Source: a virus. Taken from it: DNA of 46,481 bases. The notes beneath the pieces were generated by a model. The model had not been told where the DNA came from and did not search any database. It saw only the letters and a program-made list of their open reading frames with translations. The position numbers and the translations under genes are program-made. The stretch lies in the IMG/VR virus record IMGVR_UViG_3300045454_000008, positions 1-46,481 of that record. One strand, written 5' to 3'. Positions 1 to 34,768 of this stretch are shown in pieces. Numbering within the stretch: the first letter of the stretch is position 1; the number at the start of each line of letters is the position of its first letter.

Positions 1-127
1 GAGCGCCGCCTCGTGCCAACGCTCCTTCTCGGCCTCCGCAGCCTCAGCGCGGGCAAGGGCGGCCTGGAGTTCGGCAGCGGTCTCGTCGTCGCCGTCGTCC
101 CAGTCCTTGCGCGCCTCACGGAACGCG
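1..127. repeat. Terminal overlap copy A (identical to 46355-46481); circular-assembly overlap
   Basis: Read directly: gagcgccgcctcgtgccaacgctcc...cctcacggaacgcg occurs at both window ends. The repeat lies inside an open minus-strand reading frame. Confidence 0.95.
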
Positions 128-1008
128 CGGGCCATGCACCGCAGGAAGCCATCGAAGCCGCTCCCGGCGATCAGTGCGGCGGGGGTCTTGTCGCCGTCCG
201 TGTCGAAGCCCATGACTTCGTAGGCGTCCCACAGGGTCTGCGCGGCAGCCTCGGCGCGGGCAAGGGCGGCGCGTTCCCGGGCCTGCACCGTAGCGAGCGC
301 GTCCCACACCTCGCGGACGGGCCGACCGTGGCGCGAACAGTCCTCAGCGGGGCCGCCTGTCTCCACGCTGCACCCGCCGTCGCACGGCAGCCCCTCCTGC
401 GCCTCGACCGGGCGGGTGGGCAGGGCGGCGAGGAGGTCGCGGACGTACTCGCGCCACCCGTTGCGCTGGGACTCGTCGAGGCGCTCCCAGGGCGTGCCGT
501 AGCCGTTGACGCGCGAGGACCACATCAGGCGCGCATGGGCCTCCCGCGCCACCCGTTCCACGTCCACCCCGGCCACCTGGGGCGGGTCCTGCCGGAGCAG
601 GGACGCGGCGGCACCCAACGCGGCGTCGATGATGAGGTCACTGTCCCGATCAGGGTTGGCCGGGATGCTCATGCGCCAGCGCTCGTCACGCGGCGCGGCG
701 CAGATGCGACCCACCTCGTCGCGCGCCCGCTCGATCAGCCGCAGCACCTCGGCCACCTCTGCCGTGCTCGCCCGCTCCACGTCCTCCCCGGCGGGAGACG
801 ACACAGGGGCGGGGGTGGTCAGGACCCGCAGCAGCCGGTGAACGTGCCACCAGGGCGTCCCGGCCCACGTCGCCGGAGAGTCTCCGTCGGTCGCCTGTAT
901 CAGCGCCGACTCGGCCTCGCGCACGACCTGCACCGCGTCCTCATGGCCCTGCGCCACCGCAGCGGTCAGCATCCCCACCTCGTCGTCGTACTCGTGCTCG
1001 CAGCTCAT
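1..1008 (-). CDS. Hypothetical protein, 5' part (336 codons) of a 464-aa ORF split by linearisation; continues at 46354->45968
   Basis: Minus frame checked codon by codon with no stop from 1041 to base 1. ATG at 1008 (alternative 1017). High GC3. The frame joins 46354 in phase once the 127-bp overlap is collapsed. No recognisable domain. Confidence 0.75.
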   Translation of the reverse strand, partial: MSCEHEYDDEVGMLTAAVAQGHEDAVQVVREAESALIQATDGDSPATWAGTPWWHVHRLLRVLTTPAPVSSPAGEDVERASTAEVAEVLRLIERARDEVGRICAAPRDERWRMSIPANPDRDSDLIIDAALGAAASLLRQDPPQVAGVDVERVAREAHARLMWSSRVNGYGTPWERLDESQRNGWREYVRDLLAALPTRPVEAQEGLPCDGGCSVETGGPAEDCSRHGRPVREVWDALATVQARERAALARAEAAAQTLWDAYEVMGFDTDGDKTPAALIAGSGFDGFLRCMARAFREARKDWDDGDDETAAELQAALARAEAAEAEKERWHEAAL

Positions 1009-1050: not shown

Positions 1051-1605
1051 TCACGTTGAGACGTGAGGTGGAACAGCCCGCAGTCGTCGCTTCCGCAGCC
1101 TGTTCGATTCGCGGCTGCACTCCAGGCATGTCCACCTGCCCCTGGGGAGCGCTCTGCGGGAGCCCTCCCTGGTAATGTCGTGTCGCCCGCTCTTGCAGCG
1201 CGTTCGGATTGCATAGCTGTTGACGCCCCTTCGCTGATTTTCCTGGTTGGTCACCGGCTCCAGGTGGTATGGGTTGACGCAGAGTGGCCGGCGACACAGG
1301 TGGTCGAGCTGAAGCCCTGGCGGAATGTCCGCAATCATCATCTCGTAGGAGACGCGATGGGCGAGCTTCGGACCGCCGCCAAGATAGAAGGTCCCCCTTC
1401 CACCGGTCTGGCTGCCGGTCCAGATCCAGCACTCCCCGTCCTGGCTCACCTTCTCCCAGAACCGTTCTTCGACCGAGCGGCGGGGTCGACGCGCCACCGG
1501 GGACAGGTCCTTGCCTTTGCGCCACTGCTGATAATGCGCGTGGCAGAGTCCGCGCGACTCGGCGGGATGGCCGCAGCCGTCGAATGTGCATGATCGATCA
1601 GCCAA
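1051..1605 (-). CDS. HNH homing-type endonuclease
   Basis: 184-aa ORF. N-terminal CTFDGCGHPAESRGLCHAHY zinc knuckle, CWIWTG, AHRVSY, and DHLCRRPLCVNPYHLEPVTNQEN (HNH_3-like signature). Paralogous to 8033-8341 and 37039-37557. Confidence 0.85.
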   Translation of the reverse strand: MADRSCTFDGCGHPAESRGLCHAHYQQWRKGKDLSPVARRPRRSVEERFWEKVSQDGECWIWTGSQTGGRGTFYLGGGPKLAHRVSYEMMIADIPPGLQLDHLCRRPLCVNPYHLEPVTNQENQRRGVNSYAIRTRCKSGRHDITREGSRRALPRGRWTCLECSRESNRLRKRRLRAVPPHVST

Positions 1606-2894: not shown

Positions 2895-3475
2895 GCGGCC
2901 ATGTCCAGCCGCGCGGCGGAACGCAGGCAGGGGCACGCCTGAGCAGACGTGCGGACCCAGCCCCGGTAGGTCGCGGACTCCTTGCCCAGCAGCAGCTGGT
3001 AGGCCTCGTAACCGGCCTTGGGCCGGTAGTCGAAGCGGCTGTCGTGGTACGTCAGCTCGCCCCACTGACGGTCCTCGCGCCCCGCCTCGGAGCAGTCCCG
3101 CGAGATGTGGACGTAGGGCCGCGACTCCGTGCTGCCGTAGCTGCGGCTGCGGCGGAGGGACACGCGCTCGACGTGGAGCTGCAATCCCAGGTGGACCTGG
3201 CCCAGCAGTCGCGTGGCGTCGTCCACCGTGAGGCCTGGCAGCGTGTCGGCCCCGGCCTCGGAAAGCCTCGGGTAGCGCTTGCTGGGCTTGCTCACGACGG
3301 CCCACCGTTCACCGTTCACGTCCGGCTCGTCGCGCACGACCCACAGGCTCGCCGGCTTGGGGCCGGGGCCGACGATGATGCCCGTTGCGGCCGGACCCTC
3401 GCCCCAGGTGAGGCGCTGGCCCTCGCTGTACTCAGTCGGCACGTAGGGCCGCTGGCGGATCTTGCTCATTGCCAT
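2891..3475 (-). CDS. Hypothetical protein
   Basis: 194-aa ORF with ordinary composition. AGGAATGGCA precedes the ATG. No domain recognised. Confidence 0.7.
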   Translation of the reverse strand: MAMSKIRQRPYVPTEYSEGQRLTWGEGPAATGIIVGPGPKPASLWVVRDEPDVNGERWAVVSKPSKRYPRLSEAGADTLPGLTVDDATRLLGQVHLGLQLHVERVSLRRSRSYGSTESRPYVHISRDCSEAGREDRQWGELTYHDSRFDYRPKAGYEAYQLLLGKESATYRGWVRTSAQACPCLRSAARLDMAA

Positions 3476-3496
3476 TCCTTTCTCGTCGCGGAACTT

Positions 3497-3509
3497 GCTA
3501 CGTCAACAG
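3497..3509 (-). promoter_or_regulatory. 13-bp motif copy CTGTTGACGTAGC
   Basis: Intergenic, 22 nt upstream of ATG 3475, and second of two copies 30 bp apart. Confidence 0.55.
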
Positions 3510-3513
3510 ATTC

Positions 3514-3720
3514 TCATGCCTCGGCGGAAACGTCAACACGCGCCGCAACGACGATGAGGCGGACCAGGAGCAGGCCGCCGGCCAGGACGGCCAGCGCTCC
3601 CCCGTAGTGCCACCCGGAACCGACCGGCCCCAACATGGCGGACAGGAACCCACCAGCCATGAGACCGCCGCCCACGGCGGACACGATCAACCGGCCCAGC
3701 ATCATGGCGGACGGGTTCAC
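3514..3720 (-). CDS. Small membrane protein (two predicted TM helices)
   Basis: 68 aa. Hydrophobic Gly/Ala/Leu stretches LIVSAVGGGLMAGGFLSAML and GGALAVLAGGLLLV. Confidence 0.7.
   Translation of the reverse strand: MNPSAMMLGRLIVSAVGGGLMAGGFLSAMLGPVGSGWHYGGALAVLAGGLLLVRLIVVAARVDVSAEA
3527..3539 (-). promoter_or_regulatory. 13-bp motif copy GTGTTGACGTTTC (inside the 3' end of 3514-3720, encodes R-V-D-V-S)
   Basis: Exact consensus. GAATCT lies 17 bp after TTGACG and is a possible weak -10. Confidence 0.6.
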
Positions 3721-3941
3721 AGCCGGGCCGTTGCCTTGATGAGTGCGTTAGCGATGACCTGCACCGTCTCGTTGGGCACGGTCGCCAGCTCGCGCCCGTA
3801 CTGCTCGATGAGGTCCAGGGCGGTCACGGCGGCCATGTAGTCCAGGGCCAGCGCCTCGACCGTCTCGTCGGGGGCGTAGCCGGCACCGTTCGGGCCGTAG
3901 ACGACGCGGACATACTCCGCGTCCTGGTACGTCGTCTCCAT
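3717..3941 (-). CDS. Hypothetical protein
   Basis: Trimmed to ATG 3941 (METTYQDAEY...), 2 nt after the upstream stop. 74 aa. Confidence 0.65.
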   Translation of the reverse strand: METTYQDAEYVRVVYGPNGAGYAPDETVEALALDYMAAVTALDLIEQYGRELATVPNETVQVIANALIKATARL

Positions 3942-3942
3942 A

Positions 3943-4347
3943 TCACAGCCGCCCGGTCTCGCGGAGGATGCGCGCAATGGCGTCCTTCATCGTCCAGATG
4001 GGCTTGCCCGTCTCGCGCCGCTCCAGCACACCCTCGCGGACGATCTCCGCGATGCGGTCCAGCGCGTCGTCGCGCGGGTCCGGCATGTCCGTAACGTGAG
4101 AGTGGTCGTCGTCCTCGTGCTGGCAGACGCTCGGGCGGAACGGCGGAGCGGGGCGCATGTGCCTGCGCGCCACGTCCACCGGGCTCACGCCGGGGTCGCG
4201 CACCGTCCAGCCGTAGTAGTTGTCGCCCATGAGGTCCAGGTCTCGCAGCACGCGGGCCATGTAGACGCGCTCAGGGTCGATGCCGGCGGCGAAGATCGTT
4301 TGGCGGATCACGCCCACCAGCTCCGCCTTCGAGGCGTAGCGACTCAT
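3943..4347 (-). CDS. Hypothetical protein
   Basis: 134-aa ORF. GGGGAGGACG precedes the ATG. No domain recognised. Confidence 0.7.
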   Translation of the reverse strand: MSRYASKAELVGVIRQTIFAAGIDPERVYMARVLRDLDLMGDNYYGWTVRDPGVSPVDVARRHMRPAPPFRPSVCQHEDDDHSHVTDMPDPRDDALDRIAEIVREGVLERRETGKPIWTMKDAIARILRETGRL

Positions 4348-4407
4348 CGTCCTCCCCTTTCACTCGCTCGGATACTGCTTACGCGCCCTGGCGTCGAATC
4401 GAACGAC

Positions 4408-4420
4408 GCAACGTCAACAG
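4408..4420 (-). promoter_or_regulatory. 13-bp motif copy CTGTTGACGTTGC
   Basis: Intergenic, 61 nt upstream of ATG 4347. No -10 at the proper spacing. Confidence 0.55.
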
Positions 4421-4442
4421 CCAGTCCAGGGCTAACCGTGTG

Positions 4443-4709
4443 CTACGCGAGCACCGCCCGCACGTTGCGGCCCACCGACGACGGGGCGGAGGCGATGAAC
4501 TCCGCCCGCACGCGCGGCATGGGCGGCGTCAGCTGCTCCCCGGTGTCGGCGTCCTCGATGGTCCACAAGCCGTAGCGGCGGGTCAGGAGCGGGTGCGTGA
4601 GCTTGATCCGCAGCTCCTCCACGGCGGACGCCTCGCTCATCGGGCCGGCGTGTCGGCCCCTCTCGCCCGTCATGCCCATCAGGACCGGACGGGCCGTGTC
4701 GATCCTCAT
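4443..4709 (-). CDS. Hypothetical protein
   Basis: 88-aa ORF with a strong RBS (GAGAGGAAGGAACGACG before the ATG). Confidence 0.7.
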   Translation of the reverse strand: MRIDTARPVLMGMTGERGRHAGPMSEASAVEELRIKLTHPLLTRRYGLWTIEDADTGEQLTPPMPRVRAEFIASAPSSVGRNVRAVLA

Positions 4710-4746
4710 CGTCGTTCCTTCCTCTCGTCGTTGACTTGCCTAACGC

Positions 4747-4794
4747 GCCCGGCGGAGGTCTCGAACCTCCGTACGTCCCTTACCGACTCCGGGC
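4747..4794 (-). other. tRNA-like acceptor/T-arm minihelix in the 5' UTR of 4443-4709 (not a tRNA gene)
   Basis: Minus strand reads GCCCGG-AGTCGGTAAGGGACGTA-CGGAGG-TTCGAGA-CCTCCG-CCGGGC. That gives a 6-bp outer stem plus a 6-bp inner stem and a 7-nt loop matching the T-loop consensus TTCRANN. No D or anticodon arms. Confidence 0.5.
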
Positions 4795-4877
4795 CACCAG
4801 CTACGTTCGACCTTCACCACCTCCGATCGTCTGTGCTGGCCGGTCTCCTCTCCGTTGGTGTGTTGCTGTCCCTCCTA

Positions 4878-4909
4878 ACGGTAGTTGCGGTGTTGCGGTA
4901 TGTCAACAC
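4878..4909 (-). promoter_or_regulatory. Leftward promoter candidate with overlapping 20-bp palindrome (O1, 4890-4909)
   Basis: Minus strand: GTGTTGACA-N17-TACCGT. -35 TTGACA at 4906-4901 and -10 at 4883-4878. The plus strand at 4890-4909 reads GTGTTGCGGTATGTCAACAC. Confidence 0.5.
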
Positions 4910-4919
4910 TCGCCGGAAA

Positions 4920-5204
4920 CTAAGCGCGCTCCCCTCGCTCGATCAGGGCCGCGCGGGCGCGGAGCCAAACCACGAAGTCCCACTGAGCATCCGTGGTCAG
5001 CACGCCGGGGCCGGCGAAGTGGTCCGCCGCATCCCGTAGGGCCTGGGCCTGGGCGTTCCTCACCGGGTCGCGCTGCGGCGGTTGCGACCGCCTCTCGCGG
5101 CACTCCCGCGATGCGGCGTCCCACTCCTGCACCGTGGCGCAGTCCAGGTGGCCGCACCAGCCCACGACCCCGCACAGGCGGCGGACGGGTTCCTCCTTCG
5201 TCAC
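4920..5204 (-). CDS. Hypothetical Cys-containing protein
   Basis: Trimmed from ORF 4920..5639 to GTG 5204 (GTGA overlap with the stop of 5201-5341). 94 aa, VTKEEPVRRLCGVVGWCGHLDC... The upstream part of the track ORF is Gly/Arg/Pro noise. Confidence 0.6.
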   Translation of the reverse strand: MTKEEPVRRLCGVVGWCGHLDCATVQEWDAASRECRERRSQPPQRDPVRNAQAQALRDAADHFAGPGVLTTDAQWDFVVWLRARAALIERGERA

Positions 5205-5341
5205 TTGCCCTCGATCTCCCTTCGCGTCTTGCCGCAGTACGCGCACACCAGCCCGGCAGCGCGCGGCACCAGGTGGTGAGTCGAGTTGTCCGCACCCTCC
5301 GGCGCGCCCGACTCGGGGCAGTACATTTGCGTAGCTTCCAT
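5201..5341 (-). CDS. 46-aa zinc-ribbon-like micro-protein (below the ORF-track cutoff)
   Basis: Reads MEATQMYCPESGAPEGADNSTHHLVPRAAGLVCAYCGKTRREIEGK. Strong RBS GAGGAGGAGTC before the ATG. High GC3. Confidence 0.55.
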   Translation of the reverse strand: MEATQMYCPESGAPEGADNSTHHLVPRAAGLVCAYCGKTRREIEGK

Positions 5342-5389
5342 GACTCCTCCTCGCTGATGGGTTCCGGGCAATCATCGCAGGCCGGCGGA

Positions 5390-5683
5390 TCACTCCTCCG
5401 TCAGGGCCTCGACCACCTCGGACCAGTTCACGCGCCACAGGCTGCCGACCTCGTGGGCCATCATCTCGATGCCCTCCGGCTGGGCCGTGCCGTACATCTC
5501 GCGGTACTCGGCGGGGTTCAACAGCTCCTCCACCTGCCCCCGGACGGCCCGCTCCTGGTCGTCCGGGTAGTCCCGGACGATCTGGCGGAACATCTCGTAC
5601 AGGCCCTGGTCGTTGTTGATGTGGAGCATGAGCGCCCACGTCTCGCGGTTCGTCCAGCCCTGGTAGGTCTCGTCCGTGCCCAT
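5390..5683 (-). CDS. Hypothetical protein (WTNRETW motif)
   Basis: Trimmed to ATG 5683 (GAGAGGTGAGGACG upstream). 97 aa, acidic. Confidence 0.7.
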   Translation of the reverse strand: MGTDETYQGWTNRETWALMLHINNDQGLYEMFRQIVRDYPDDQERAVRGQVEELLNPAEYREMYGTAQPEGIEMMAHEVGSLWRVNWSEVVEALTEE

Positions 5684-5716
5684 CGTCCTCACCTCTCGGT
5701 CTCGGTTACTGCCTAC

Positions 5717-5761
5717 GTGCGGCCCCGGGACTCGCACCCGGTATGTCTGCTAGCGCCGCGC
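5717..5761 (-). other. Weaker tRNA-like minihelix in the 5' UTR of 5390-5683
   Basis: Minus strand reads GCGGC-GCTAGCAGACATA-CCGGG-TGCGAGT-CCCGG-G-GCCGC. Same architecture as 4747-4794, but the loop is TGCGAGT (position 2 deviates from the T-loop consensus) and the stems are shorter. Confidence 0.3.
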
Positions 5762-5861
5762 CACCTCTCACGGTTGGCGGATACTGCACCTGCTATCCAG
5801 CGTTGCCTTTCGTCTAGCGCCGGCCCTGCTGCCCTGCCTCCCTCCCCTCTCGCCTGTCTCT

Positions 5862-5893
5862 AGTGTGGCACAGGTGTTGCGCTACGTCAACAC
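5862..5893 (-). promoter_or_regulatory. Leftward promoter candidate with overlapping 20-bp palindrome (O2, 5874-5893)
   Basis: Minus strand: GTGTTGACG-N17-CACACT. The plus strand at 5874-5893 reads GTGTTGCGCTACGTCAACAC. Sits at the start of a roughly 200-nt leader. Confidence 0.5.
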
Positions 5894-5897
5894 GCAC

Positions 5898-6113
5898 TCA
5901 CAACCAGCCCGCGTCCAACCATGCGCGGACGCGAGGATCAGTGGACGTGTCGCCCCTGCGCGTGGTCCGGTCCGGGTCTGACGACCATGCATCGCGGACG
6001 ACGGGACGGAACGACTCCGGCCCGAACTCCTCCAGCTCTGCCAGGACTGCGCCCTGCGGGTACCACGTCGCACCGGGGCGCGTAGCAACGGGGACGCCCG
6101 TCGCGGCGCTCAC
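5898..6113 (-). CDS. Hypothetical protein
   Basis: Trimmed to GTG 6113 (GTGA overlap with the stop of 6110-6418). 71 aa. Confidence 0.55.
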   Translation of the reverse strand: MSAATGVPVATRPGATWYPQGAVLAELEEFGPESFRPVVRDAWSSDPDRTTRRGDTSTDPRVRAWLDAGWL

Positions 6114-6418
6114 GATCCCCACCCGTGCGCCCGGTTGACGCCGGCAACGGCGACGCGGACACGCGCGCGGTCACCCGACAGGCGCGCGCGACGCAGTTCC
6201 TCGTACCAGGCGTCCGTATGGGCGCGGCACACCGTCCGCACCCAGTCCGGGACGAACGATGCGCGCTCCGTCGCTGACATCTCGCCCCACGCGCCACCAC
6301 CGGGGCGCGCGGTGAACCAACCCGCGTCGGACACGTAGGCCGGCTGGCGCCGCCCGTTCACAGTCACGCCGCCCCATACGGTGCCGATGAGCGGCAGGGC
6401 CGTCGTCGTCTCACTCAT
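6110..6418 (-). CDS. Hypothetical protein, paralog A (VPDWVR motif)
   Basis: Trimmed to ATG 6418 (GAGAGGGGATGGAATA upstream). 102 aa. Shares VP(D/E)WVR and its leader with 6521-6877. Confidence 0.65.
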   Translation of the reverse strand: MSETTTALPLIGTVWGGVTVNGRRQPAYVSDAGWFTARPGGGAWGEMSATERASFVPDWVRTVCRAHTDAWYEELRRARLSGDRARVRVAVAGVNRAHGWGS

Positions 6419-6428
6419 TATTCCATCC

Positions 6429-6493
6429 CCTCTCAGAGTGCTACTGCCACCACCACCGCCACCATGAGGTGGCGATGATGGAAACGGCAACAC
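6429..6493 (-). promoter_or_regulatory. Conserved leader, copy 1: GTGTTGCCGTTTCCATC + hairpin + 26-nt box
   Basis: Motif variant at 6481-6493. Hairpin CGCCACC/GGTGGCG at 6457-6474. The 26-mer at 6429-6454 is identical to 6885-6910. Confidence 0.55.
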
Positions 6494-6520
6494 GTCAGGC
6501 GTGGACACCCATCGCGGCGG

Positions 6521-6877
6521 TCACGATGCACCACCGACGTGGAGGAGGTGGGCGCGGACACCGCCTGCGACCGTCTCGGCGGTCACGCCGTCGCGGAAGT
6601 CGCCCACATAGGAGGCCGCGCCATCCAGCGTCGCGGAGTCCTCGCGCGCCTCATCTGCGGCGGCCACGATCATGTCACGCACCCACTCCGGGACCACGGT
6701 CCAGCGCTCACGGATCACGCGCCCCGCGAAAGCGTGTCCGTGCGGGTAGGTCACGACCGTGCGCACACGGTCCGGCTCGCCTGGCGTCACGGCGTATGTG
6801 TGCACCACGCGGACGGGCGTCCGCGTCCATCCCGAACGGGTGAGTGAGTCGCGGATGCGGTATTCGGTGGTCATCAT
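6521..6877 (-). CDS. Hypothetical protein, paralog B (VPEWVR motif)
   Basis: Trimmed to ATG 6877 (GAGAGGAGAGGGA upstream). 118 aa. Confidence 0.65.
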   Translation of the reverse strand: MMTTEYRIRDSLTRSGWTRTPVRVVHTYAVTPGEPDRVRTVVTYPHGHAFAGRVIRERWTVVPEWVRDMIVAAADEAREDSATLDGAASYVGDFRDGVTAETVAGGVRAHLLHVGGAS

Positions 6878-6884
6878 TCCCTCT

Positions 6885-6949
6885 CCTCTCAGAGTGCTAC
6901 TGCCACCACCGCGCACCGCGTGAACGGTGCGGGATGGAAACGGCAACAC
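6885..6949 (-). promoter_or_regulatory. Conserved leader, copy 2: GTGTTGCCGTTTCCATC + hairpin + 26-nt box
   Basis: Motif variant at 6937-6949, directly after the TAA of 6950-7228. Hairpin CGCACCG/CGGTGCG at 6912-6931. 26-mer at 6885-6910. Confidence 0.55.
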
Positions 6950-7228
6950 TTACAGCTCAGAACCGCACCGGTCGCAGGTGTCGCCATCCACCTGGGATGC
7001 GAAGATCACCTTGGGGAAGTCGCCCGAGTCGAACGAGTATTCGTCCATCCGGTCGATGCCGAACGCCGCTGCCAGTTCGTTTAGGTTCTGCTCGGCGGAC
7101 ATCTGTCCGGTGGCGTCGCGCCACCCGTCGAACGCCTCACCCTCACCCGTGGGGAGTGCGTCGACGACGCACGAGCTGCAAAGCGTCTCTGCCTGGAACG
7201 TGTAGCCGGCGATGGCCGTTGCGCGCAT
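6950..7228 (-). CDS. Small zinc-ribbon-like protein, first gene of the leftward operon
   Basis: Trimmed to ATG 7228 (GAGAGGATCGGGACA upstream). 92 aa with CSSC...CDRC Cys pairs. Confidence 0.65.
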   Translation of the reverse strand: MRATAIAGYTFQAETLCSSCVVDALPTGEGEAFDGWRDATGQMSAEQNLNELAAAFGIDRMDEYSFDSGDFPKVIFASQVDGDTCDRCGSEL

Positions 7229-7264
7229 TGTCCCGATCCTCTCTCGTGCTCTCCTTGTGCTCCC

Positions 7265-7296
7265 ATCGTAGCAACAGCAACAGCACCATGCAACAC
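7265..7296 (-). promoter_or_regulatory. Leftward operon promoter candidate (P-left)
   Basis: Minus strand: GTGTTGCAT-N17-TACGAT. -35 at 7293-7288 and -10 at 7270-7265, about 30 nt before ATG 7228. The spacer GCTGTTGCTGTTGC resembles the promoter at 40461-40493. Confidence 0.5.
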
Positions 7297-7400
7297 ATGC
7301 CGCCAAGATTCTTCGACGAGCTTTGGACGCCGGCACGGATGCGAGAGGCCGCCAGCCTGACGCCGTAAGGCGGACACGGGGACAGTCTCCCAATCTCGCC

Positions 7401-7438
7401 CATATCGATGCATCATGCCGCATATCTATGCATCATCC
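7401..7438. repeat. Two 18-bp direct repeats phased 20 bp apart (CATATCNATGCATCATNC)
   Basis: 7401-7418 catatcgatgcatcatgc and 7421-7438 catatctatgcatcatcc, 16/18 identical. Lies about 105 bp upstream of P-left. Confidence 0.7.
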
Positions 7439-7509
7439 ATGCCATGCGCTGCCACCCTGCCAGCTCCTGCCGGCCCTGGTCCTAGCCTGCCTCACTACGT
7501 GCGCTATCA

Positions 7510-7590
7510 GGGGGTGGTGGGGGTGGTGGGGTGTCTCTCGCGGGGCGTCTTGACCCGGGGGATGTTAAAGCCGGCGGGGGTGCGTGGGGG
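7510..7590 (+). repeat. G-tract array (G-quadruplex-capable) in the non-coding region
   Basis: GGGGGTGGTGGGGGTGGTGGGGTG, followed by four further runs of 4-5 G (7542-7545, 7557-7561, 7576-7580, 7586-7590). C-tracts follow at 7600-7630. Confidence 0.6.
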
Positions 7591-7678
7591 TAGTACTCTC
7601 CCCCGATCTATGTGCCCCCCTTGGCCCCCATCTAGCTGTGGACAACACTGCTTCGTTCACCCGTTTGGGTGATGTGTA

Positions 7679-7700
7679 CAGAGCCTCAAAAGAGGCTCTG
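7679..7700. other. Perfect 9-bp hairpin CAGAGCCTC-AAAA-GAGGCTCTG in an AT-rich island
   Basis: Read directly. Local GC is about 46% over 7661-7760 (counted by hand). No flanking U-tract on either strand. Confidence 0.6.
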
Positions 7701-7752
7701 ACCTGCACGTTTGGAAAATCTGAGTGCTCAAGTGGCATCTATATAGTTGAAA

Positions 7753-7808
7753 GGGGTTTTACGAGCGAGAGCGAGTGAAACCCCGTAAACGACCCCTCCC
7801 AAGGGGTC
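7753..7808. other. Two further hairpins (GGGGTTT...AAACCCC at 7753-7784; GACCCCT-CCCA-AGGGGTC at 7791-7808)
   Basis: Read directly. The first loop contains the tandem GAGCGAGAGCGAG. Confidence 0.55.
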
Positions 7809-7887
7809 GGGGTCGAAGCGTAGCTCTAGCGGAGCGTAGACCCCCTCCTCGCTCCTCCCTATCGGTCGTCGCTCAGGTTCCCCCTGA

Positions 7888-7952
7888 CGCTGGTGATCCC
7901 TGAGCGCCTTGCGCTCCGGTGTGCCTTGGTGGCCCACCGTCGCTGGTGATCC
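7888..7952 (+). repeat. 12-bp direct repeat CGCTGGTGATCC x2, 53 bp apart, upstream of HNH/terminase
   Basis: Copies at 7888-7899 and 7941-7952. Each is followed by NTGANCGC. Hairpin GAGCGC-CTT-GCGCTC at 7901-7915 lies between them. Confidence 0.65.
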
Positions 7953-8032
7953 ATGACGCATGTGCGCGCGCGAGCGACCCCGCAGGAGCACCCCACACCT
8001 GCACCCCACAGGACCGCATGGAGGTAGCGCCC

Positions 8033-8341
8033 ATGTCCACGTTCGGTGACCCCCGTCTCCCGAGGAAGTTCTGGGACCTCGTGGAGCCTCGCGCGAACGG
8101 CTGCTGGATCTATTTCGGCGGCTACACGGGCGACGGGTACGGGGCCTTTTATCTCACCAAGAAGCAGGACCGGGTGCACCGGCTCGCGTTCGCCCACCTC
8201 GTCCGCCCGATCGAATCGGGCGAGTCGATTGTCCACACTTGCGGCGACCGCCGCTGCGTGAACATTAAGCACCTTTATGCAAAGGAGGTCCGGCGTGCCG
8301 AAAAGGCTGGATCTCCCCGAGGCGAAGGCGCGCGTTCTTGA
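8033..8341 (+). CDS. HNH endonuclease adjacent to terminase
   Basis: Trimmed to ATG 8033 (GGAGGTAGCGCCC upstream). RKFWDLV...NGCWIYFG...VHRLAF...HTCGDRRCVNIKHL. Its 3' end overlaps the terminase start by 47 nt. Confidence 0.8.
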   Translation: MSTFGDPRLPRKFWDLVEPRANGCWIYFGGYTGDGYGAFYLTKKQDRVHRLAFAHLVRPIESGESIVHTCGDRRCVNIKHLYAKEVRRAEKAGSPRGEGARS

Positions 8342-10193
8342 ACTCATCGCGGCTGGCGATTCTGTTGAGAAGGCGATGGGTGCGGTTGACCGCACCGTCC
8401 GCACCTGGGAGTCGTGGCGCAAGTCCGACCCGGAGTTCGCCCGACAGGTTGACGAGATTCGTGCGGCGCGCAAGCGACGTGTATCTGACGATGCTGACGT
8501 TGAGGTACCTGTTCGCCGGGATATGCCGTTCGCGGAGTGGCGCAAGGAGTACCTGGGCTTCGACACGTACGCCCACCAGCAGCAGTGGATCGACGTTCTA
8601 GAGGGGCGCGAGCCGCAGCCTACCGAGGGCTGCGAGTGGGACGAGCGGAACCGCAAGCGGCTCATCATCAACGTGCCGCCGTTCCACGCGAAGTCCCAGA
8701 CGATCACCGTGGACTACGTGACGTACCGGATCTGCATGAACCCGAACGTCCGCATCATCATCGTGTCCAAGCGTGGCGAGTCGGCGCAGAAGTTCCTGTA
8801 CCAGATCCAGCAGCGCCTCACCTCCACCCGTTTCGCCAAGCTCCAGGCGGCGTTCGCCCCTGACGGGGGCTTCAAGCCCGAGAAGGGCGAAGGGTCGTTC
8901 TCCCAGAAGGTCATGTACGTGGCCGGCCGCACCGCCGACCACAAGGACCCCACGGTCGAGGTGCTGGGCATGGGCGCCCAGATCTACGGCTCCCGTGCGG
9001 ACCTCATCATCCTGGACGACGCGATCACGGGCGCGAACGCGAACGAGTTCGAGAAGCAGGTCTACTGGCTGGAGTCCGAGGTCGAGTCCCGTGTGAAGAA
9101 CGGGACCATCCTCCTGGTCGGCACCCGGCTGGCCGGGCAGGACTTGTACTCCGAGCTGCGCGTGGACGACCGCTACCTCAACGGGCGGTCGCCCTGGTCC
9201 TACCTGCGCCAGCCGATGGTGCTGGCGTTCAGCGAGGACCCGAAGGACTGGAAGACCCTCTGGCCGCACACCTCCACCCCGCTGGACGAGCTGGAGGAGG
9301 AGCCGGACGAGAACGGCCTGTACCCGGCGTGGGACGGGCCGGCGTGCGCGAAGGTGCGCGACTCCAAGCCCCCCGCCGTGTGGTCGCTGGTGTACCAGCA
9401 GCAGCAGACCGCTGAGGACGCCACGTTCAAGCCGATCTGCGTGCTCGGGTCGGTGAACGGCCAACGCAAGCCTGGCCCGTTGAAGGCGGGCGCCTTCGGG
9501 CACCCGCGACGCGGCAAGGAAGGCATGTACACGATCGCGTCGATGGACCCTGGGATGGGTGTCACGTTCGCGGTCGTCGGGTCGGTGGACCGCAAGGACT
9601 CCAAGCGGTGGATCGAGAACGCCTGGGTGCTGAACTCCCCCTCCCCCACGTCCATCCGTGACCTCATCAAACGGGTCACGGACGAGTACGGGGTGCAGGA
9701 GTGGGTGATTGAGGAGCAGGGCTTTCAGTCCTTCCTCACCCAGGACCCCGAGATCCGCGCGTTCCTCGCCTCGCGCGGTGTGCGCATGTCCGGGCACTAC
9801 ACGGGCCGCAACAAGCTGGACCCCGACTTCGGGGTGGCGTCCCTGTCGGGCCTGTTCGGGTCCACCCGTCGCATCAACGAGGGTGCGGGCCGTGAGGTGT
9901 TCAACCGGGACAACCTCATCGAGCTGCCCGACCAGAACATGTCCGCCGGGATCAAGGCGCTCATCGAGCAACTGCTGACCTGGGTGCCTGGCAAGCGCGG
10001 CTCCAAGCTCACCCAGGACGGGCCGATGGCCCTGTGGTTCTTCGACCTGCGCGCCCGCGTGATCCTCGGCCACGACCGTGGCCGTGAGCCGACCCAGCAC
10101 GTTGCGATCCCGTTCATGTCCAGGGGCGCGCAGAAGAAGCAGGCGTCCGCCCCGTTCGCGTGGGGTCAGAGAAGGAGGGTGGCCGGTGGCTGA
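8295..10193 (+). CDS. terL: Terminase large subunit with N-terminal HTH (small-subunit-like) extension
   Basis: GTG 8295 follows AAGGAGG by 6 nt. ATPase-like INVPPFHAKSQ and LIILDDAI (Walker B). The C-terminal part is nuclease-domain sized. The N-terminal 80 aa (LELIAAGDSVEKAMGAVDRTVRTWESWRK) look like an HTH. Confidence 0.85.
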   Translation: MPKRLDLPEAKARVLELIAAGDSVEKAMGAVDRTVRTWESWRKSDPEFARQVDEIRAARKRRVSDDADVEVPVRRDMPFAEWRKEYLGFDTYAHQQQWIDVLEGREPQPTEGCEWDERNRKRLIINVPPFHAKSQTITVDYVTYRICMNPNVRIIIVSKRGESAQKFLYQIQQRLTSTRFAKLQAAFAPDGGFKPEKGEGSFSQKVMYVAGRTADHKDPTVEVLGMGAQIYGSRADLIILDDAITGANANEFEKQVYWLESEVESRVKNGTILLVGTRLAGQDLYSELRVDDRYLNGRSPWSYLRQPMVLAFSEDPKDWKTLWPHTSTPLDELEEEPDENGLYPAWDGPACAKVRDSKPPAVWSLVYQQQQTAEDATFKPICVLGSVNGQRKPGPLKAGAFGHPRRGKEGMYTIASMDPGMGVTFAVVGSVDRKDSKRWIENAWVLNSPSPTSIRDLIKRVTDEYGVQEWVIEEQGFQSFLTQDPEIRAFLASRGVRMSGHYTGRNKLDPDFGVASLSGLFGSTRRINEGAGREVFNRDNLIELPDQNMSAGIKALIEQLLTWVPGKRGSKLTQDGPMALWFFDLRARVILGHDRGREPTQHVAIPFMSRGAQKKQASAPFAWGQRRRVAGG

Positions 10194-16400: not shown

Positions 16401-18229
16401 CGCGGCCCGTGGCCGCTGCCTACGAGTCCATCGAGCGACGCTACTTCCAGTGGGTCGCGCAGATCCCGGAGAACATGATGGGCCGGCACCCGCTGTACGC
16501 GGGCCGGTTCGAGGTGCACGCCAAGAAGCTCATCGAGCAGACGGGCCTGGACGAGGCGACCATGACCCTCGGCCAGATCAACGACGTGCGCCGTGCCGCC
16601 GACAGGTTCGCCCGTCGGGACATCGGTCGGTACATGTTCGACACGTCCAAGCAGACCAACATCGGCCACATGCTCCGCTTCGTGTCCCCGTTCTACGGGG
16701 CATGGGAGGACACGATGGTCAAGTGGGCCAGGATCTTCGGGCAGCACCCGGAGATGCTGGCGCTGGGCTGGAAGGTCGCCCGCTCCCCGAACGCCGCCGG
16801 GCTGGTGGTGGACGAGGACGGCAACCAGATCGACCCGCTGGGCAACGTCCGCGACCGGAACACGGGCGAGGTGATCGGCCAGAAGGGGATGTGGGACGGG
16901 TACGTGGTCCTGCCGATCCCCGGTCCGCTCCAGAAGTGGACGGGCGCGAAGGACGTGCGGATCGCCAAGAACGCGGCGAACGTCATCTTCCAGGGTGACC
17001 CGTGGTTCCTGCCCGGCCCCGGCCCGATGTTGGCCGTGCCCGCCAACGAGATCATCGTCAACTCCTTCCCGGAGGTGTGGGGCGAGGAGGGATCGGAGAA
17101 CCCGATCCTGAAGTGGATTCTGCCCTACGGCCCCACCTCGGACAGCGTGGCCGAGCAGGTCATGCCGTCCTGGGCGAAGGCCGCGAAGGACGCACTCACC
17201 CAGGACTCGCGCCGCGTCGACCAGGTGTTCACCCAGCTGTACATCGAGCAGGTGAACGCCGAGCGCAACGGTGAGTCCGACCCCATGTCGGACGACGACC
17301 GCATGGACCTCATCGCCAACCGCACCCGAAACTGGACGCTCCTGCGCCTGTTCGGGACGCAGATGCCGTTCACGTTCACACCCCAGTCCCGCCTCGGCTT
17401 CTACAAGTCGGAGTGGGACCGCTACCGCCGCGAGTTCGGGGCGGACGCGGAGGAGCGGTTCGCGCAGGACTACCCCGAGTATTTCGACATGGCGATCAGC
17501 CTGTCGGAGTCGGAGACGGGCCTGCGGGCAACCGACGAGTCGTGGGGCGCGATCCAGGCGTACCGCAACGACATGGCGAAGCACCCCGAGTACGGGTGGT
17601 TCTGGGCCGGCGCGGCGAACCTGGCCGACGGGTGGTCGCAGGGCGTCTACCACGCCCAGCTCCGCCAGGAGGTCGGGCCTGGGACGAGCACGCACTTCCG
17701 GCGGCGCAAGGACCCGCTGGAGGCGGCTCGTGAGGCGATGGTGTCCCAGGGCTGGCGGGAGTACCAGCAGATCAGCACGGCGCTGGACCTGAAGCTGGAG
17801 GAGCGGGGGCTGACCTCGCTGCGACAGACCGGGGCCGAAGACCTTGCGGCGATCCGCGAGGAGTTCGTGCAGGAGCTGTCGGTGCGCAACCAGGACTGGG
17901 CCGCGGCCTACCGCGAGGGCGGGAATCCGGGGAAGGTCACCGAGTTCCTGACGCTGGCGATCGACCAGTTCAACTCCCACCCCGAGCTGATGTCTCGCGG
18001 TGACGGCGCTGCGCTTGCGCAGTACCTGGAGATCAGGAACGCCATCAAGTCGAAGATGGCCGAGCGTGGCCTGTCTTCGATCAACGCCCAGGGCAACGCG
18101 GACCTGCTCGAAATCTGGGAGCAGGCAACGGCGGAACTCCGCCAGGACGTGGGGTTCGACCAGATGTGGACGCGAGTGCTCTCTCGTGACGACCTGTCCG
18201 GTGAGACGTATGCGAAGGAGGCTGGCTGA
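13409..18229 (+). CDS. Giant (about 1600 aa) putative internal virion/ejection protein
   Basis: Single uninterrupted 4.8-kb ORF directly after the portal module and before the scaffold and capsid genes. The likely true start is GTG 13424, 8 nt after GGAGG. No polymerase or tape-measure motifs were recognised. Confidence 0.8.
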   Translation: MEVPPVATETTFYTRVGAAAQAGAPIGSSVDIARTVPTNRAAQSAGRAIAQSGQSFFQPGATLNANREVVREEEAPSFWDRVGGVVSGVGRPVLRALEWGTEATGNIAETNLRTIYGRVSQGDVGGTLKSLLLSPLADDEWRDNWDRVVKAQASIGQTAWLVAEDAADSLGLWDAGTSGSGMEDEQGNIVGPRVRSRGLDLLDDPTRRAERQEYFSEGMAHWTTGVGDALWQVFADPLIVAGAGAGAARRAASTLKADDVARVADRSLDAAELTNKQARSRDLVRQFAEAFEDAGAGTVSNAARTRYLKNSTDGGAIAYFMGRAGEYADDAASRIELREDIIYAGMGDKAALERVGQRAELLRVELDKMNAPLRDLPDGDELVRAVDATDDDLMRLASESVAKATDSPVISRELKAQESLIRKDLEALSRITEVGRPVAGVDSGVGGLANIPATRAGARRDVARITKTRQYGQFLEPVQYVTGRHLPGTFKLSDDDAGNVFHEAVLRARRVATGLAGDQREAFTAALKGLEDEFLAAGIGAQSKAARGTIVARFDSLVDEVIAAKYGVDKDALGAVHSAVRGRRKATIQAVATRAYQARSANQVEALHAGDGVFAIAPDAKWVEDLGRPVARSQIEDFVSIIDPRLLDRFAQNHFKDGMSGFAKMRANVDPRRLHGTRAWEVTEHALSVMNRAWKFGALLRPFAYFVRAQMDTQARNLAMLTPLKYMADAGRSGFVNLPANLRKMDKGEALALSQRFFAHQRIDEIEDALARGIDDEALAKELADLKEAVAKPVTFKRTGEKVRVRDTEAARIRGKSARIDRQGNYTAPRARDAYRSTDEFKRVVASFDAEDSILGLLTGSTRGQLDSMRRSGRWDLIRGSDASWDTAYIRAVNNQIRSDALGQRLLAGQTDEEILAWFKNDPEGIKYLRDMRATGAESGAVVVARFRDHIDTLLPEGSAARSVALERSITAKEIKEMWPVPSDRPHVPGEILDENWTRPVAAAYESIERRYFQWVAQIPENMMGRHPLYAGRFEVHAKKLIEQTGLDEATMTLGQINDVRRAADRFARRDIGRYMFDTSKQTNIGHMLRFVSPFYGAWEDTMVKWARIFGQHPEMLALGWKVARSPNAAGLVVDEDGNQIDPLGNVRDRNTGEVIGQKGMWDGYVVLPIPGPLQKWTGAKDVRIAKNAANVIFQGDPWFLPGPGPMLAVPANEIIVNSFPEVWGEEGSENPILKWILPYGPTSDSVAEQVMPSWAKAAKDALTQDSRRVDQVFTQLYIEQVNAERNGESDPMSDDDRMDLIANRTRNWTLLRLFGTQMPFTFTPQSRLGFYKSEWDRYRREFGADAEERFAQDYPEYFDMAISLSESETGLRATDESWGAIQAYRNDMAKHPEYGWFWAGAANLADGWSQGVYHAQLRQEVGPGTSTHFRRRKDPLEAAREAMVSQGWREYQQISTALDLKLEERGLTSLRQTGAEDLAAIREEFVQELSVRNQDWAAAYREGGNPGKVTEFLTLAIDQFNSHPELMSRGDGAALAQYLEIRNAIKSKMAERGLSSINAQGNADLLEIWEQATAELRQDVGFDQMWTRVLSRDDLSGETYAKEAG

Positions 18230-21372: not shown

Positions 21373-22220
21373 TGGCTACTTCAACTGACCCGTTCGGCGG
21401 CCTGGAGGGCGCCGACCGTGACGCCTACCTGGCGATCACGAACACCCTGAAGGCATACGGCCTGGAATCCCTTGCCCCGTCCGTGCTGGGCTTCATCCAG
21501 CAGGGCTACTCCGCCGACACGATCAACGTCCTGTTGCAGCAGTCCCCGGAATACAAGAAGCGCTTCGCGGCCAACGAGGCCCGGCGCCAGAAGGGGCTGC
21601 CCGTCCTGTCGCCCGCCGAGTACCTGGCGACGGAGCGGTCCTACCGCCAGGTCATGGCAGCCGCCGGGCTGCCGGTCGGCTTCTACGACGAGCCGTCCGA
21701 CTTCGAGAACTGGCTGGCGAACGACGTGTCCCCCGTTGAGGTGCAGGAGCGTGTCAACCTAGCCGCCGACTTCATCAACACCACCGACCCCGGCGTGCTG
21801 GACACGATGCGCCAGTGGTACAGCGACGGTGACCTGATCGCCTACGCGCTGGACCGTGACCGTGCCACCCGGGTGCTGGAGCGTCAGTTCCAGGCGGCCC
21901 GCATCGGTGACGCCGCACAGGACCAGGGCGTGGGTATCGACCGGGGCCTGGCGGAGCGGATCGCTGACACGGGCGTGGACGCCAACCAGGCCCGCCAGGG
22001 CTTCGGCACCGCCGCCGCTGTGGGCGCCAACGCCGCTCGCCTGTCGGAGGTGTACGGCGGTTCGTACACCCAGGAGGACGCCATGAACGAGGTGTTCTTC
22101 AGCGACGAGCAGGCCGCGCGGAAGCGTCGTGGGCTTGCCTCGCAGGAGCGCGCCCAGTTCTCCGGCGGTGGTGGCATCAACGAGCGGTCCCTGTCCACGC
22201 GCCAGGCGGGACAGGTCTAG
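21372..22220 (+). CDS. Hypothetical virion-module protein
   Basis: 282-aa ORF with a TGATG-coupled start. Confidence 0.7.
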   Translation: MATSTDPFGGLEGADRDAYLAITNTLKAYGLESLAPSVLGFIQQGYSADTINVLLQQSPEYKKRFAANEARRQKGLPVLSPAEYLATERSYRQVMAAAGLPVGFYDEPSDFENWLANDVSPVEVQERVNLAADFINTTDPGVLDTMRQWYSDGDLIAYALDRDRATRVLERQFQAARIGDAAQDQGVGIDRGLAERIADTGVDANQARQGFGTAAAVGANAARLSEVYGGSYTQEDAMNEVFFSDEQAARKRRGLASQERAQFSGGGGINERSLSTRQAGQV

Positions 22221-22226: not shown

Positions 22227-22274
22227 GGAGCGGGACGGTCTTTACGGGGGTTCGACTCCCCCGCCGCTCACCCA
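22227..22274 (+). other. tRNA-like acceptor/T-arm minihelix (not a tRNA gene)
   Basis: Reads G-GAGCGG-GACGGTCTTTA-CGGGGG-TTCGACT-CCCCCG-CCGCTC-ACCCA. The 6+6 bp stems could stack coaxially, the loop matches the canonical T-loop, and the 3' tail is ACCCA. There are no D or anticodon arms, and no 5' acceptor partner lies at tRNA distance. Confidence 0.5.
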
Positions 22275-32812: not shown

Positions 32813-33171
32813 CAGCCCTCAGCCCCTCTGCGCCGTCGAGACCCCCTCCCCGGACGATCACCCACGGACGACGTGTTGTCGTCTCCTAGGGCCGTTTCCG
32901 GGGCTGTGGTGGCCTGTTTCGGGCCACGGCTCGTAGTCTTGCGCCGTCGGGCCACCTCGTCAAGGGTGACGAGAGGCATCCGGGCGACAGGTGTGCGGGA
33001 GGGGCGGCGCTCCTCGGCGGCGTCCATCACCTTCTCCAGCGGCCGGCGGCACGAGGCGCACAGGTCCAACTGGCGCAAAGGGCTGCCACTGATGCCGATG
33101 CGAACCGGTGTTGTTTCTGTATCGCGCCCGCAACCGTCACACAACACGACGGTTATCCTCTGCTTCGCCAC
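32812..33171 (-). CDS. Lsr2 N-terminal-domain-like protein with a basic RG-rich tail
   Basis: GTG 33171 follows GGAGGG by 6 nt. VAKQRITVVLCDGCGRDTETTPVRIGISGSPLRQLDLCASCRRPLEKVM aligns by eye with the Lsr2 N-terminus (MAKKVTVTLVDDFDG...V.F.LDG..YEIDL). The C-terminus carries SRGPK and PGRGSRRRRG. Confidence 0.45.
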   Translation of the reverse strand: MAKQRITVVLCDGCGRDTETTPVRIGISGSPLRQLDLCASCRRPLEKVMDAAEERRPSRTPVARMPLVTLDEVARRRKTTSRGPKQATTAPETALGDDNTSSVGDRPGRGSRRRRGAEG

Positions 33172-34210: not shown

Positions 34211-34524
34211 CAGCACTCCCGGTAGTGGTCGAAGTCAGGGTCGTCGGCGTTGGCACACACGGGGCACCGGATGCCCTTGGTCCACTCGCGGTCAACCTCG
34301 CGGAAGACCGTGAGCAGGTGGGCGTGGCGGGGGTCGAGATGCCCCAGTTCATACATGGCGTCGATGGCGTCGTGCGCCACGCTGTCGGGGAGTGCGACCT
34401 CTGCGGGCAGGGGTCTTCCGCTCTCGTCTCGGGGAAAGCGCAGCGCCTCAGGGGTGTCTTGCAGCCACTGGACGTAGCGCCCGTAGATGTCGTCTGCCCG
34501 CTCCAGCGGGTGGCTATCTGTCAT
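34210..34524 (-). CDS. Hypothetical protein, first gene of the int operon, probably leaderless
   Basis: 104-aa ORF. The ATG lies 7 nt after a TACAGT -10 and no RBS is present. C-terminal CPVC...HYREC. Confidence 0.65.
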   Translation of the reverse strand: MTDSHPLERADDIYGRYVQWLQDTPEALRFPRDESGRPLPAEVALPDSVAHDAIDAMYELGHLDPRHAHLLTVFREVDREWTKGIRCPVCANADDPDFDHYREC

Positions 34525-34567: not shown

Positions 34568-34587
34568 ATGTTGCGGCACGTCAACGC
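34568..34587. promoter_or_regulatory. 20-bp near-palindrome O3 (ATGTTGCGGCACGTCAACGC)
   Basis: Same TGTTGCG-N-GTCAAC architecture as O1 (4890-4909) and O2 (5874-5893). Lies in the divergent int/HTH region. Confidence 0.5.
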
Positions 34588-34723: not shown

Positions 34724-34768
34724 CATGCTTGCTACAGCACCACCCCGACCCGACTTAGGGCCAACACC

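Follow-up and report, generated by a model that had tools for sequence, protein, structure and literature searches.

Four short elements, named E1 to E4, mark gene junctions in the genome of a temperate actinophage (IMG/VR record IMGVR_UViG_3300045454_000008). The window, which is the whole stretch of 46,481 nt that was analysed, is a complete circular assembly of this genome (46.4 kb). Its first 127 nt (1-127) are identical to residues 46355-46481, a signature of circular assembly, and the real genome thus measures about 46,354 bp. Three of the elements lie in a leftward operon of small genes, which runs on the minus strand from about 7400 down across coordinate 1. In the direction of transcription, the operon features genes encoding proteins of 74 (5898-6122), 97 (DUF7249; 5390-5683), 46 (5201-5341), 94 (4920-5204), 88 (4443-4709) and 134 amino acids (3943-4347). 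Gene calls around E1, E2 and E3 are repeated in an independent Logan contig. E4 resides on the plus strand in the late operon, upstream of the scaffold-like gene and the major capsid gene. The four elements belong to a conserved family of cis-acting mRNA structures, in which one half of a tRNA, the coaxial acceptor/T-arm domain, is reproduced and the rest is missing.

Structure of the elements

E1 spans residues 4747-4794 of the minus strand and, read from 4794 to 4747, corresponds to GCCCGG / AGTCGGTAAGGGACGTA / CGGAGG TTCGAGA CCTCCG / CCGGGC. The acceptor-like stem GCCCGG/CCGGGC is formed by residues 4789-4794 and 4747-4752, the T-like arm by residues 4753-4771, and the two helices provide 6+6 = 12 stacked bp. 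This architecture, identical to that claimed in the initial annotation of the sequence, is also the minimum-free-energy fold of a 61-nt segment (-28.2 kcal/mol, z score -1.9). The 17-nt internal segment has the length originally reported, but is not necessarily unpaired, as claimed at the time: in the fold it can form an optional 3-bp hairpin (GTC-GGTAAGG-GAC). An extra small hairpin is found in most members of the family, and many of them fold as three-way junctions made by the acceptor, the small hairpin and the T arm. A further hairpin (4796-4840, minus strand; fold of 4710-4850) is located directly 5' of the first E1 pair, and hairpins similarly abut the elements found in the related contigs L007 (GCCCGC..GCGGGC) and L092 (GCCGGTT..AACCGGC).

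Only two copies had been noticed at first. The second, E2, is a weak copy, and is best placed at 5719-5759 of the minus strand (GCGGC / 13 nt / CCGGG TGCGAGT CCCGG / bulged G / GCCGC; 5+5 bp). Two more were identified in this analysis. E3 (4385-4432, minus strand) is GCCCTGG / 17 nt / CGTCG TTCGATT CGACG / CCAGGGC, and its stems (7+5 = 12 bp) and TTCGATT loop make it the most tRNA-like of the four. It begins 10 nt past the stop codon (4443-4445) of the gene encoding the 88-amino-acid protein, and ends 37 nt before ATG 4347. E4 (22228-22269, plus strand) is GAGCGG / 11 nt / CGGGGG TTCGACT CCCCCG / CCGCTC (6+6 = 12 bp). It begins 7 nt past the stop codon (22218-22220) of a gene encoding a 282-amino-acid protein, and ends 121 nt before a scaffold-like gene (GTG 22391), which is followed by the major capsid gene at 22946.

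All four elements are intergenic and lie on the sense strand. They feature an outer stem of 5-7 bp which opens with G1-C72, a 5' internal segment of 7-19 nt, and a G-C-closed inner stem of 5-7 bp capped by the loop T[T/G]CGANN. Stem stacking yields a helix of about 12 bp; a purine, and not CCA, comes after the 3' strand. Members of the family measure 41-52 nt.

The E1 trailer (4710-4746, minus strand) starts with a discriminator-like G, continues with CGTTAGGCAAGT...CGAGAGGAAGG, the latter including the ribosome-binding site, and ends at ATG 4709; it is almost unchanged in the related contig L005. The trailer of E2 (5684-5718, minus strand) consists of A, then CGTAGGCAGTAACCGAGACCGAGAGGTGAGG, to ATG 5683; that of E3 (4348-4384, minus strand) of G, then CGTAAGCAGTATCCGAGCGAGTGAAAGGGGAGG, to ATG 4347. 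As the three trailers can be aligned, with the consensus RCGT(T)AGGCA(A)GT...CGAGAGG...ATG, E1, E2 and E3 are paralogous modules. In the leftward operon, of the window as of its relatives, each element is followed by a start codon at a distance of 31 to about 47 nt (median 37).

Occurrence in the window and in related phages

The window was searched with a descriptor requiring the loop T[TG]CGANN, an internal segment of 8-25 nt and two stems of at least 5 bp, with a single bulged base tolerated. Five loci were found, against 0.58 +/- 0.74 expected from 200 dinucleotide shuffles (maximum 3). A fifth locus, besides E1-E4 (1434-1486, plus strand; loop TTCGACC), is antisense within coding sequence and was not scored by the covariance model; it was discarded as a chance match. 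With the third loop purine relaxed to [AG] and an internal segment of 6-28 nt, the descriptor matched 14 loci in 75 kb from six relatives which had not been used to define the pattern (1.40 +/- 1.03 expected, maximum 5), and 13 of the 14 are on the sense strand of the leftward operon. Stacks measure 10 bp in one match, 11 bp in four, 12 bp in five and 13 bp in four. Chance matches pile up at the 10-bp minimum and decay upward; real ones centre on 12.

Contigs of related phages were retrieved through TerL (large terminase subunit) homologues and by scanning JGI metagenomes with a TerL profile. Most contigs looked up start at the TerL gene, and consequently do not include the leftward operon. 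One to three elements each were found, in leaders, in L007 and L013 (TerL 68-70% identical to that of the window), L010 and L011 (71-72%), L092 (69%), L095 (64%) and L021 (56%). In L010 and L011 the element directly follows the homologue of the gene encoding the 74-amino-acid protein, which is the position of E2. L005, a short contig, starts inside E1: the 25 nt of T arm and acceptor that it includes are unchanged. Its copy of E3 carries one substitution, located in the unpaired segment, and the flanking proteins are only about 73% identical. Substitutions between L010 and L011, as between the window and L005, are found in the unpaired segment only. ARAGORN calls overlapping the elements in L010 and L033 correspond to poor cloverleaves with mismatched stems, and have been rejected as real tRNAs.

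A first covariance model (R1), trained on E1, E3 and the L005 copy of E3, matched L007 (E = 1.3e-8), L092 (2.3e-6), L095 (1.7e-5), L010 (1.2e-4), L021 (2.9e-4) and L011 (5e-4), as well as E4 (0.038), at that stage not in the training set. No match was found in phiC31 or L177. The second-round model (R2) scored E3 at 64.1 bits, E1 at 62.4 bits and E2, which was not in its training set, at 24.1 bits (E = 0.016). When R2 was run on the window with filters off, hits ranked in the order E3, E1, E4 and E2, and noise started at E = 0.14.

Compensatory changes, for which the initial annotation had proposed a search, are present in the related phages. The E1 inner stem CGGAGG/CCTCCG is replaced by CGGTGG/CCACCG in L007 (A-U to U-A) next to an identical acceptor, and the E2 outer stem GCGGC/GCCGC by GCCGC/GCGGC in L092. 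The GCCCTG acceptor of E3 is joined to four different T stems (CGTCG, TGCGGG, CGGGA and GCGGG). In the model-aligned set (n = 12), 98.6% of the cells pair, 10 of 12 pairs are changed on both sides, and G1-C72 is found in 12/12, and among curated elements G53-C61 is found in 14/15 and G1-C72 in 10/11, all of these being figures partly circular by construction, as the descriptor or model by which sequences had been selected or aligned relies on pairing. In unforced MAFFT alignments the 5' acceptor strands were misregistered, owing to internal segments of variable size and to stems which compensate for each other in length (5+7, 6+6, 7+5). Register-fixed pseudo-hairpin and model-based alignments, both partly circular, were used instead. 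The independent evidence is provided by the shuffle controls and by the matches that the model gained in unrelated contigs. G-U pairs are formed on the sense strand only, and every significant match is sense-oriented; both observations point to RNA, not to DNA.

Elements of similar design were noticed in two low-GC freshwater relatives (TerL about 47% identical), at L057 1988-2034 and L089 239-285, both on the minus strand: GCGTG / AGTGGTTTAAGGCCACGGA / CTAGG TTCAACC CCTAG / A / CATGC. A G-U pair of one copy is a G-C pair in the other, and neither copy is scored by the model. The design may thus extend past the high-GC subclade.

The capsid slot

The interval hosting E4 is variously filled in related phages. 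The 282-amino-acid protein encoded upstream is 46% identical to gp14 of the Streptomyces phage Manuel, where 19 tRNA genes separate the gp14 gene from the scaffold and capsid genes downstream; the same slot hosts 14 tRNA genes in Abafar. In L007 and L013, among the closest relatives, the E4 slot falls just past the 10-kb flank that was read. Homologues of the 282-amino-acid protein mark 79 IMG/VR loci. Some of these contain about 12-22 tRNAs. Many others (L102, L106-L111, L117, L121, L122, L125, L127, L130, L151 and L164) contain exactly one, the identity of which, Met(cat), Asn(gtt) or Leu(taa), depends on the lineage. A minihelix similar to E4 (GGGCG / 11 nt / GCGGGG TTCGAGT CCCCGC / CGCCC; R2 E = 0.005) occupies the slot in L115 and L116. 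In L148 and L161, a terminator made by a plain hairpin and a U tract is followed by a promoter-like stretch.

Sequences downstream from the slot are conserved. Residues 22270-22320 (plus strand) include ...ACGGACCGGCCGGCCC...AAGACCGGTA, and the motif GGA(Y)CGACCGGCCCC...AAG(W)CCGGTA precedes the scaffold and capsid genes in every relative examined (L108, L112, L115, L125, L148, L150), whatever the slot contains. The fold of the window sequence is not significant (z score -0.35). Given the contents of the slot and the conserved motif downstream, E4 is the positional equivalent of a tRNA gene at the boundary of two expression units. The slot, filled elsewhere by tRNAs or by a terminator plus promoter, provides circumstantial support to the idea, put forward in the initial annotation, that the elements are a form of tRNA punctuation.

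Additional tRNA-like sequences were noticed in these intervals. At about 4080-4200, L118 features normal D and T arms, but its anticodon region is enlarged by about 70 inserted nt. The slot of L150 and L099 hosts an odd tRNA-like sequence, either missed by ARAGORN or called with a 2-nt 'anticodon'. In the tRNA array of Manuel (L006), a plain hairpin with a T-loop at its tip, GGAGGGTGG TTCGACT CCACCTCC, is located between tRNA-Gln and tRNA-Tyr (16830-16862).

Relation to known RNA genes

No tRNA or tmRNA gene was detected by ARAGORN in the window, and no Rfam 15 family reaches the gathering threshold anywhere in it; over 4300-6300 there is no Rfam tRNA match even at E <= 10. At E4, Rfam matches are limited to sub-threshold ones with tRNA-like families, the best being tRNA-Sec (16.7 bits, threshold 47) and mascRNA (15.8 bits, E = 1.6, threshold 42.5). 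A canonical tRNA gene measures about 70-90 nt and has D and anticodon arms, which the shorter elements do not have. The elements are hence mimics of the acceptor/T-arm domain rather than complete tRNAs, as first proposed: the 12-bp stack is found in E1, E3 and E4, the T-loop in all four. tmRNA is ruled out by the lack of an ARAGORN call and of G3-U70 in any element. No intrinsic terminator was called in the 3400-7600 interval, and no T run follows E1-E4.

Promoter-like sites and other features of the genome

E1 and E2 are preceded by putative repressor-controlled promoters. The site upstream of E1 (4878-4909, minus strand) features TTGACA, 17 nt and TACCGT, and is overlapped by a palindrome, which is also found at the site upstream of E2 (5862-5893, minus strand). 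The 20-bp palindrome, GTGTTGAC-N6-CAACAC, is present in three copies (4890-4909, 5874-5893 and 34568-34587, all on the minus strand), overlaps TTGAC(A/G) hexamers, and is probably a repressor operator: the third copy lies between a repressor-like gene and its divergent neighbour, and the motif also occurs in the leaders of L092. The two promoters had been predicted in the initial annotation. They are negative in a sigma-70 scan, and their only basis is the shared TTGAC(A/G) -35 hexamer and the palindrome. The distances which separate E1 from the putative start site upstream (about 77 nt) and from ATG 4709 downstream (37 nt) are near those given then. The placement of the elements in promoter leaders fits E1 and E2 and does not extend to E3 and E4, which sit directly after stop codons inside operons.

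A second class of hairpins, with stems of about 20 bp or more, was noticed at 6418-6496 and 6874-6952 (minus strand), and at 88-172 (plus strand) in L005. These hairpins share the conserved bases GUGUUGCCGUUUCCAUC / GGUGGUGGCAGUAGCAC and have z scores of -5.0, -3.4 and -5.5, respectively; apical pairs vary among copies, with complementarity kept. In the window they immediately precede the ribosome-binding sites of two genes, which start at 6418 and 6877. They may be sites of the RNase III type, and their presence in the operon that carries the minihelices suggests that operon junctions are punctuated by structures recognised by nucleases.

The window has a G+C content of about 68%. The window includes the TerL gene (8277-10193, plus strand) and a long rightward structural operon; a tyrosine integrase (33137-34216, minus strand), the repressor-like gene (34685-35206, plus strand) and replication genes (36-45 kb) follow. 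The junction of the circular assembly is crossed by a minus-strand gene. A possible HNH endonuclease gene, called by eye, is found at 7919-8341 (plus strand), and its end overlaps the start of the TerL gene. The preceding 7400-7900 region has a lower G+C content (62%), features ATGCAT-type repeats at 7405-7445, and is likely the cos/packaging region; contigs of many relatives break there.

Gene order and 36-46% protein identity denote a distant kinship to Streptomyces phages of the Manuel group. The 4400-6100 region was not matched in GenBank phages by near or distant searches, and only tiny matches were found for the structural region; judging from these sequence comparisons, the phage has no close cultured relative at the DNA level. 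The 88-amino-acid protein has one homologue, which led to contig L005, and no homologue was found for the 94-amino-acid protein. Searches of IMG/VR proteins gave no match for the 88-amino-acid protein or for the capsid protein, and scans with the E1 DNA pattern gave none in IMG/VR or JGI metagenomes.

Proposed function

On balance, E1-E4 are best viewed as tRNA mimics which host RNase P and RNase Z would read as signals for processing or stability, an explanation to which a probability of roughly 55% may be assigned. The conserved features (T-loop, 12-bp stack, G+1, purine discriminator, lack of CCA) are those recognised by the enzymes which process tRNA ends. RNase P uses the acceptor/T-stem stack as a ruler (PMC4919913), and cleaves model substrates made by an acceptor and a T-stem-loop (McClain, Guerrier-Takada and Altman 1987, cited in PMC11143913).

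The acting enzymes, the cut sites and an effect on mRNA stability are what we infer from these features. Host RNase P would gauge the 12-bp stack from the T-loop and cut 5' of G1. A second cut, past the discriminator base, may be made by RNase Z, whose cleavage is permitted because CCA is missing. The cuts would split a polycistronic or leader-bearing transcript into segments. The upstream fragment would often be left with a terminal hairpin, such as the one at 4796-4840 after a cut at G+1. The downstream mRNA would gain a flush, fully paired tRNA-like 5' end resisting 5'-end-dependent decay; alternatively, it would begin about 37 nt before the start codon. According to this scheme, the elements would be the minimal form of the tRNA genes carried by relatives at the same operon junction.

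Several observations weigh against processing by tRNA enzymes. Bacterial RNase P of type A prefers RCCA, which is encoded in no element. E2 is bulged and weak, its fold is not the minimum-free-energy one (z score +0.8), and its L092 counterpart has an enlarged loop and a weak score. The first four acceptor pairs, GCCC/GGGC, are kept in sequence rather than covarying, and pairs 2-4 are nearly always CCC/GGG; this conservation could reflect sequence-specific recognition by a protein, or simply recent common descent. Both L177, which represents a close clade (TerL 62% identical), and phiC31 are devoid of elements, which are therefore dispensable for this genome type, and are not general to Streptomyces phages. 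Degenerate tRNA-like remnants are found in the capsid slot of L100, L118 and L150, the one in L100 being a degenerate minihelix. The partial circularity of the pair statistics belongs here too.

The elements might alternatively be structured binding sites for a partner other than the nucleases which process tRNA (a protein of the phage or the host, such as a translational regulator, an antiterminator, or a T-arm enzyme like TrmA or TruB in a chaperone role; or the ribosome), and resemble tRNA only for the stability of a fold set about 37 nt ahead of the start codon. The hypothesis is unlikely, yet has points in its favour: the GCCC/GGGC acceptor and the RCGT(T)AGG trailer are conserved in sequence beyond the needs of pairing, the spacing of 31 to about 47 nt from start codons is fixed, and promoter-like sites with an operator precede E1 and E2. 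The window revealed no candidate for an RNA-binding protein, however, and E4 is 121 nt away from the next start codon and interchangeable in position with tRNAs of differing identity. The E4 spacing and the interchange with tRNAs are better accounted for by a generic reader of the tRNA shape than by a sequence-specific binder.

It is doubtful that the elements are decayed phage tRNA genes, which lost the D and anticodon arms by internal deletion and have no function left. Real tRNAs reside in the capsid slot of relatives, sequences of intermediate type are found in L150, L099, L100 and L118, and the leftward operon of Manuel also contains a tRNA. Decay is hardly compatible with the retention of compensatory pairing in both stems, of the T-loop, of G1-C72 and G53-C61, and of a stack close to 12 bp in phages with TerL identities of 56-72%, with the confinement of substitutions to the unpaired segment in the L010/L011 and window/L005 pairs, or with the presence of several paralogous copies at a fixed distance from start codons. 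A relic origin plausibly fits how the elements arose, not why they persist.

Processing by RNase P and RNase Z would set the stage for a further role. Once cut and tailed with CCA, the anticodon-less 'mini-tRNAs' could accumulate and act in trans, for example by soaking up host defence toxins that target the acceptor end or the T arm of tRNAs, though this is improbable. Were it true, the lone slot tRNAs of relatives would be kept mainly for their shape, not for decoding. As an alternative to the main reading, a function in trans of the excised minihelices of 41-52 nt, CCA-tailed by the host and working as decoys for tRNA-targeting defence toxins or as regulators, is harder still to credit. Early expression is expected from repressor-controlled leaders, the acceptor end is complete and followed by a purine discriminator, and phage leader RNAs released by RNase P provide a precedent (Hartmann 1995, cited in PMC11143913); yet one copy resides in the late operon, and no complementarity to downstream ribosome-binding sites was seen by eye (this was not computed).

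Equally little credit is given to a role as factor-independent terminators or attenuators devoid of a U tail, or as hairpins stabilising 3' ends. Such structures have reportedly been described for the early region of phiC31 by Ingham et al. (1995), E3 and E4 start 7-10 nt past stop codons, and the stems are G+C-rich. No U tract follows any element, however, and the terminator scan of the 3400-7600 interval was negative. Termination does not require that a stem be bipartite, include a 5' internal segment and end in a conserved T-loop, and E1 and E2 lie in leaders, right before the genes they would silence. The true terminators found in the slot of relatives are plain hairpins followed by a U tract, and no T-loop minihelix of this kind is present in phiC31.

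In phages with tyrosine integrases attP often includes a tRNA-gene 3' end, and the window encodes one such integrase, but the notion that the elements represent attP cores, or scars left when a phage integrated into a host tRNA gene, is effectively refuted: the integrase is distant (28 kb from E1-E3, 11 kb from E4), a matching 5' acceptor strand is present in each of the four copies, and the E1 21-mer spanning the T arm and the 3' acceptor strand, searched in 185,579 genomes, matched no tRNA gene and gave three chance coding-sequence matches.

Comparison with known systems

If cleavage by RNase P or RNase Z is confirmed, the elements would be the counterpart, in a bacterial virus, of the tRNA punctuation of mitochondria and of the t-elements of plants. 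They would provide a portable signal of minimal size, about 45 nt, able to split operon transcripts and set mRNA ends through host enzymes alone. The data also bear on why phages carry tRNA genes, as one and the same junction may be filled by about 20 tRNAs, one tRNA of variable identity, a minihelix, or a terminator plus promoter; this suggests that the tRNA shape, rather than decoding, can be selected at the capsid slot. The elements could be put to use in high-GC Actinobacteria, as compact parts that direct processing or confer stability, and represent a class of features presently missed by tRNA finders and Rfam. In the literature searched, anticodon-less tRNA mimics were not found described in phage operons.

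The tRNA-like domain of tmRNA similarly combines an acceptor stem and a T arm with a reduced D region, and has no anticodon arm, but E1-E4 have no G3-U70, no tag reading frame and no pseudoknots. The mascRNA and MEN-beta RNAs (MALAT1, NEAT1; RF01684) are also tRNA-like units in long transcripts, and their ends are made by RNase P and RNase Z; unlike E1-E4, they are eukaryotic and fold as full cloverleaves.

The CI RNA of phage P4 is processed by RNase P from an early leader transcript. The same holds for the C4 RNA of P1 and P7, which RNase P releases from a phage early leader (Hartmann 1995, cited in PMC11143913). C4 and CI resemble the window elements in being non-tRNA units located in leaders, downstream of repressor-controlled or immunity promoters (putative in the window), and in relying on host RNase P, a dependence that is predicted for E1-E4. 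In contrast to these, C4 and CI are antisense regulators complementary to their targets, and do not feature a T-loop minihelix. Model substrates of RNase P, hairpins made by an acceptor stem, a T stem and a T-loop (cited in PMC11143913), share with the elements a coaxial helix of about 12 bp, a T-loop cap and a G at +1. The elements differ from them in the insertion of 7-19 nt in the 5' strand, which often forms a hairpin and thus a three-way junction, and in the absence of a 3' RCCA.

The tRNAs of animal mitochondrial transcripts and of phage tRNA arrays are, like E1-E4, tRNA-shaped units set between protein genes on the coding strand; the tRNAs have to be cut out of the mRNA, as is predicted for E1-E4. 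The units of the window have no anticodon arm and cannot decode, and correspond to the processing-signal part only. The closest parallel is provided by the t-elements of plant mitochondria, tRNA-like structures which are not tRNAs, and lie beside mRNA ends in multi-gene transcripts (Forner et al. 2007, PMC1920247). They have been proposed, and in part shown, to direct cuts by RNase P and RNase Z, and some are reduced to stem-loops resembling an acceptor stem (PMC1920247). The phage elements have likewise a tRNA-like fold, are sense-oriented and are placed at gene boundaries, all the significant copies being intergenic. T-elements belong to an organelle, the phage elements to an actinobacterial virus. 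Unlike t-elements, the latter make up a compact family of related sequences, marked by a strict T-loop, a 12-bp stack, a GCCC acceptor and a spacing of about 37 nt from the start codon.

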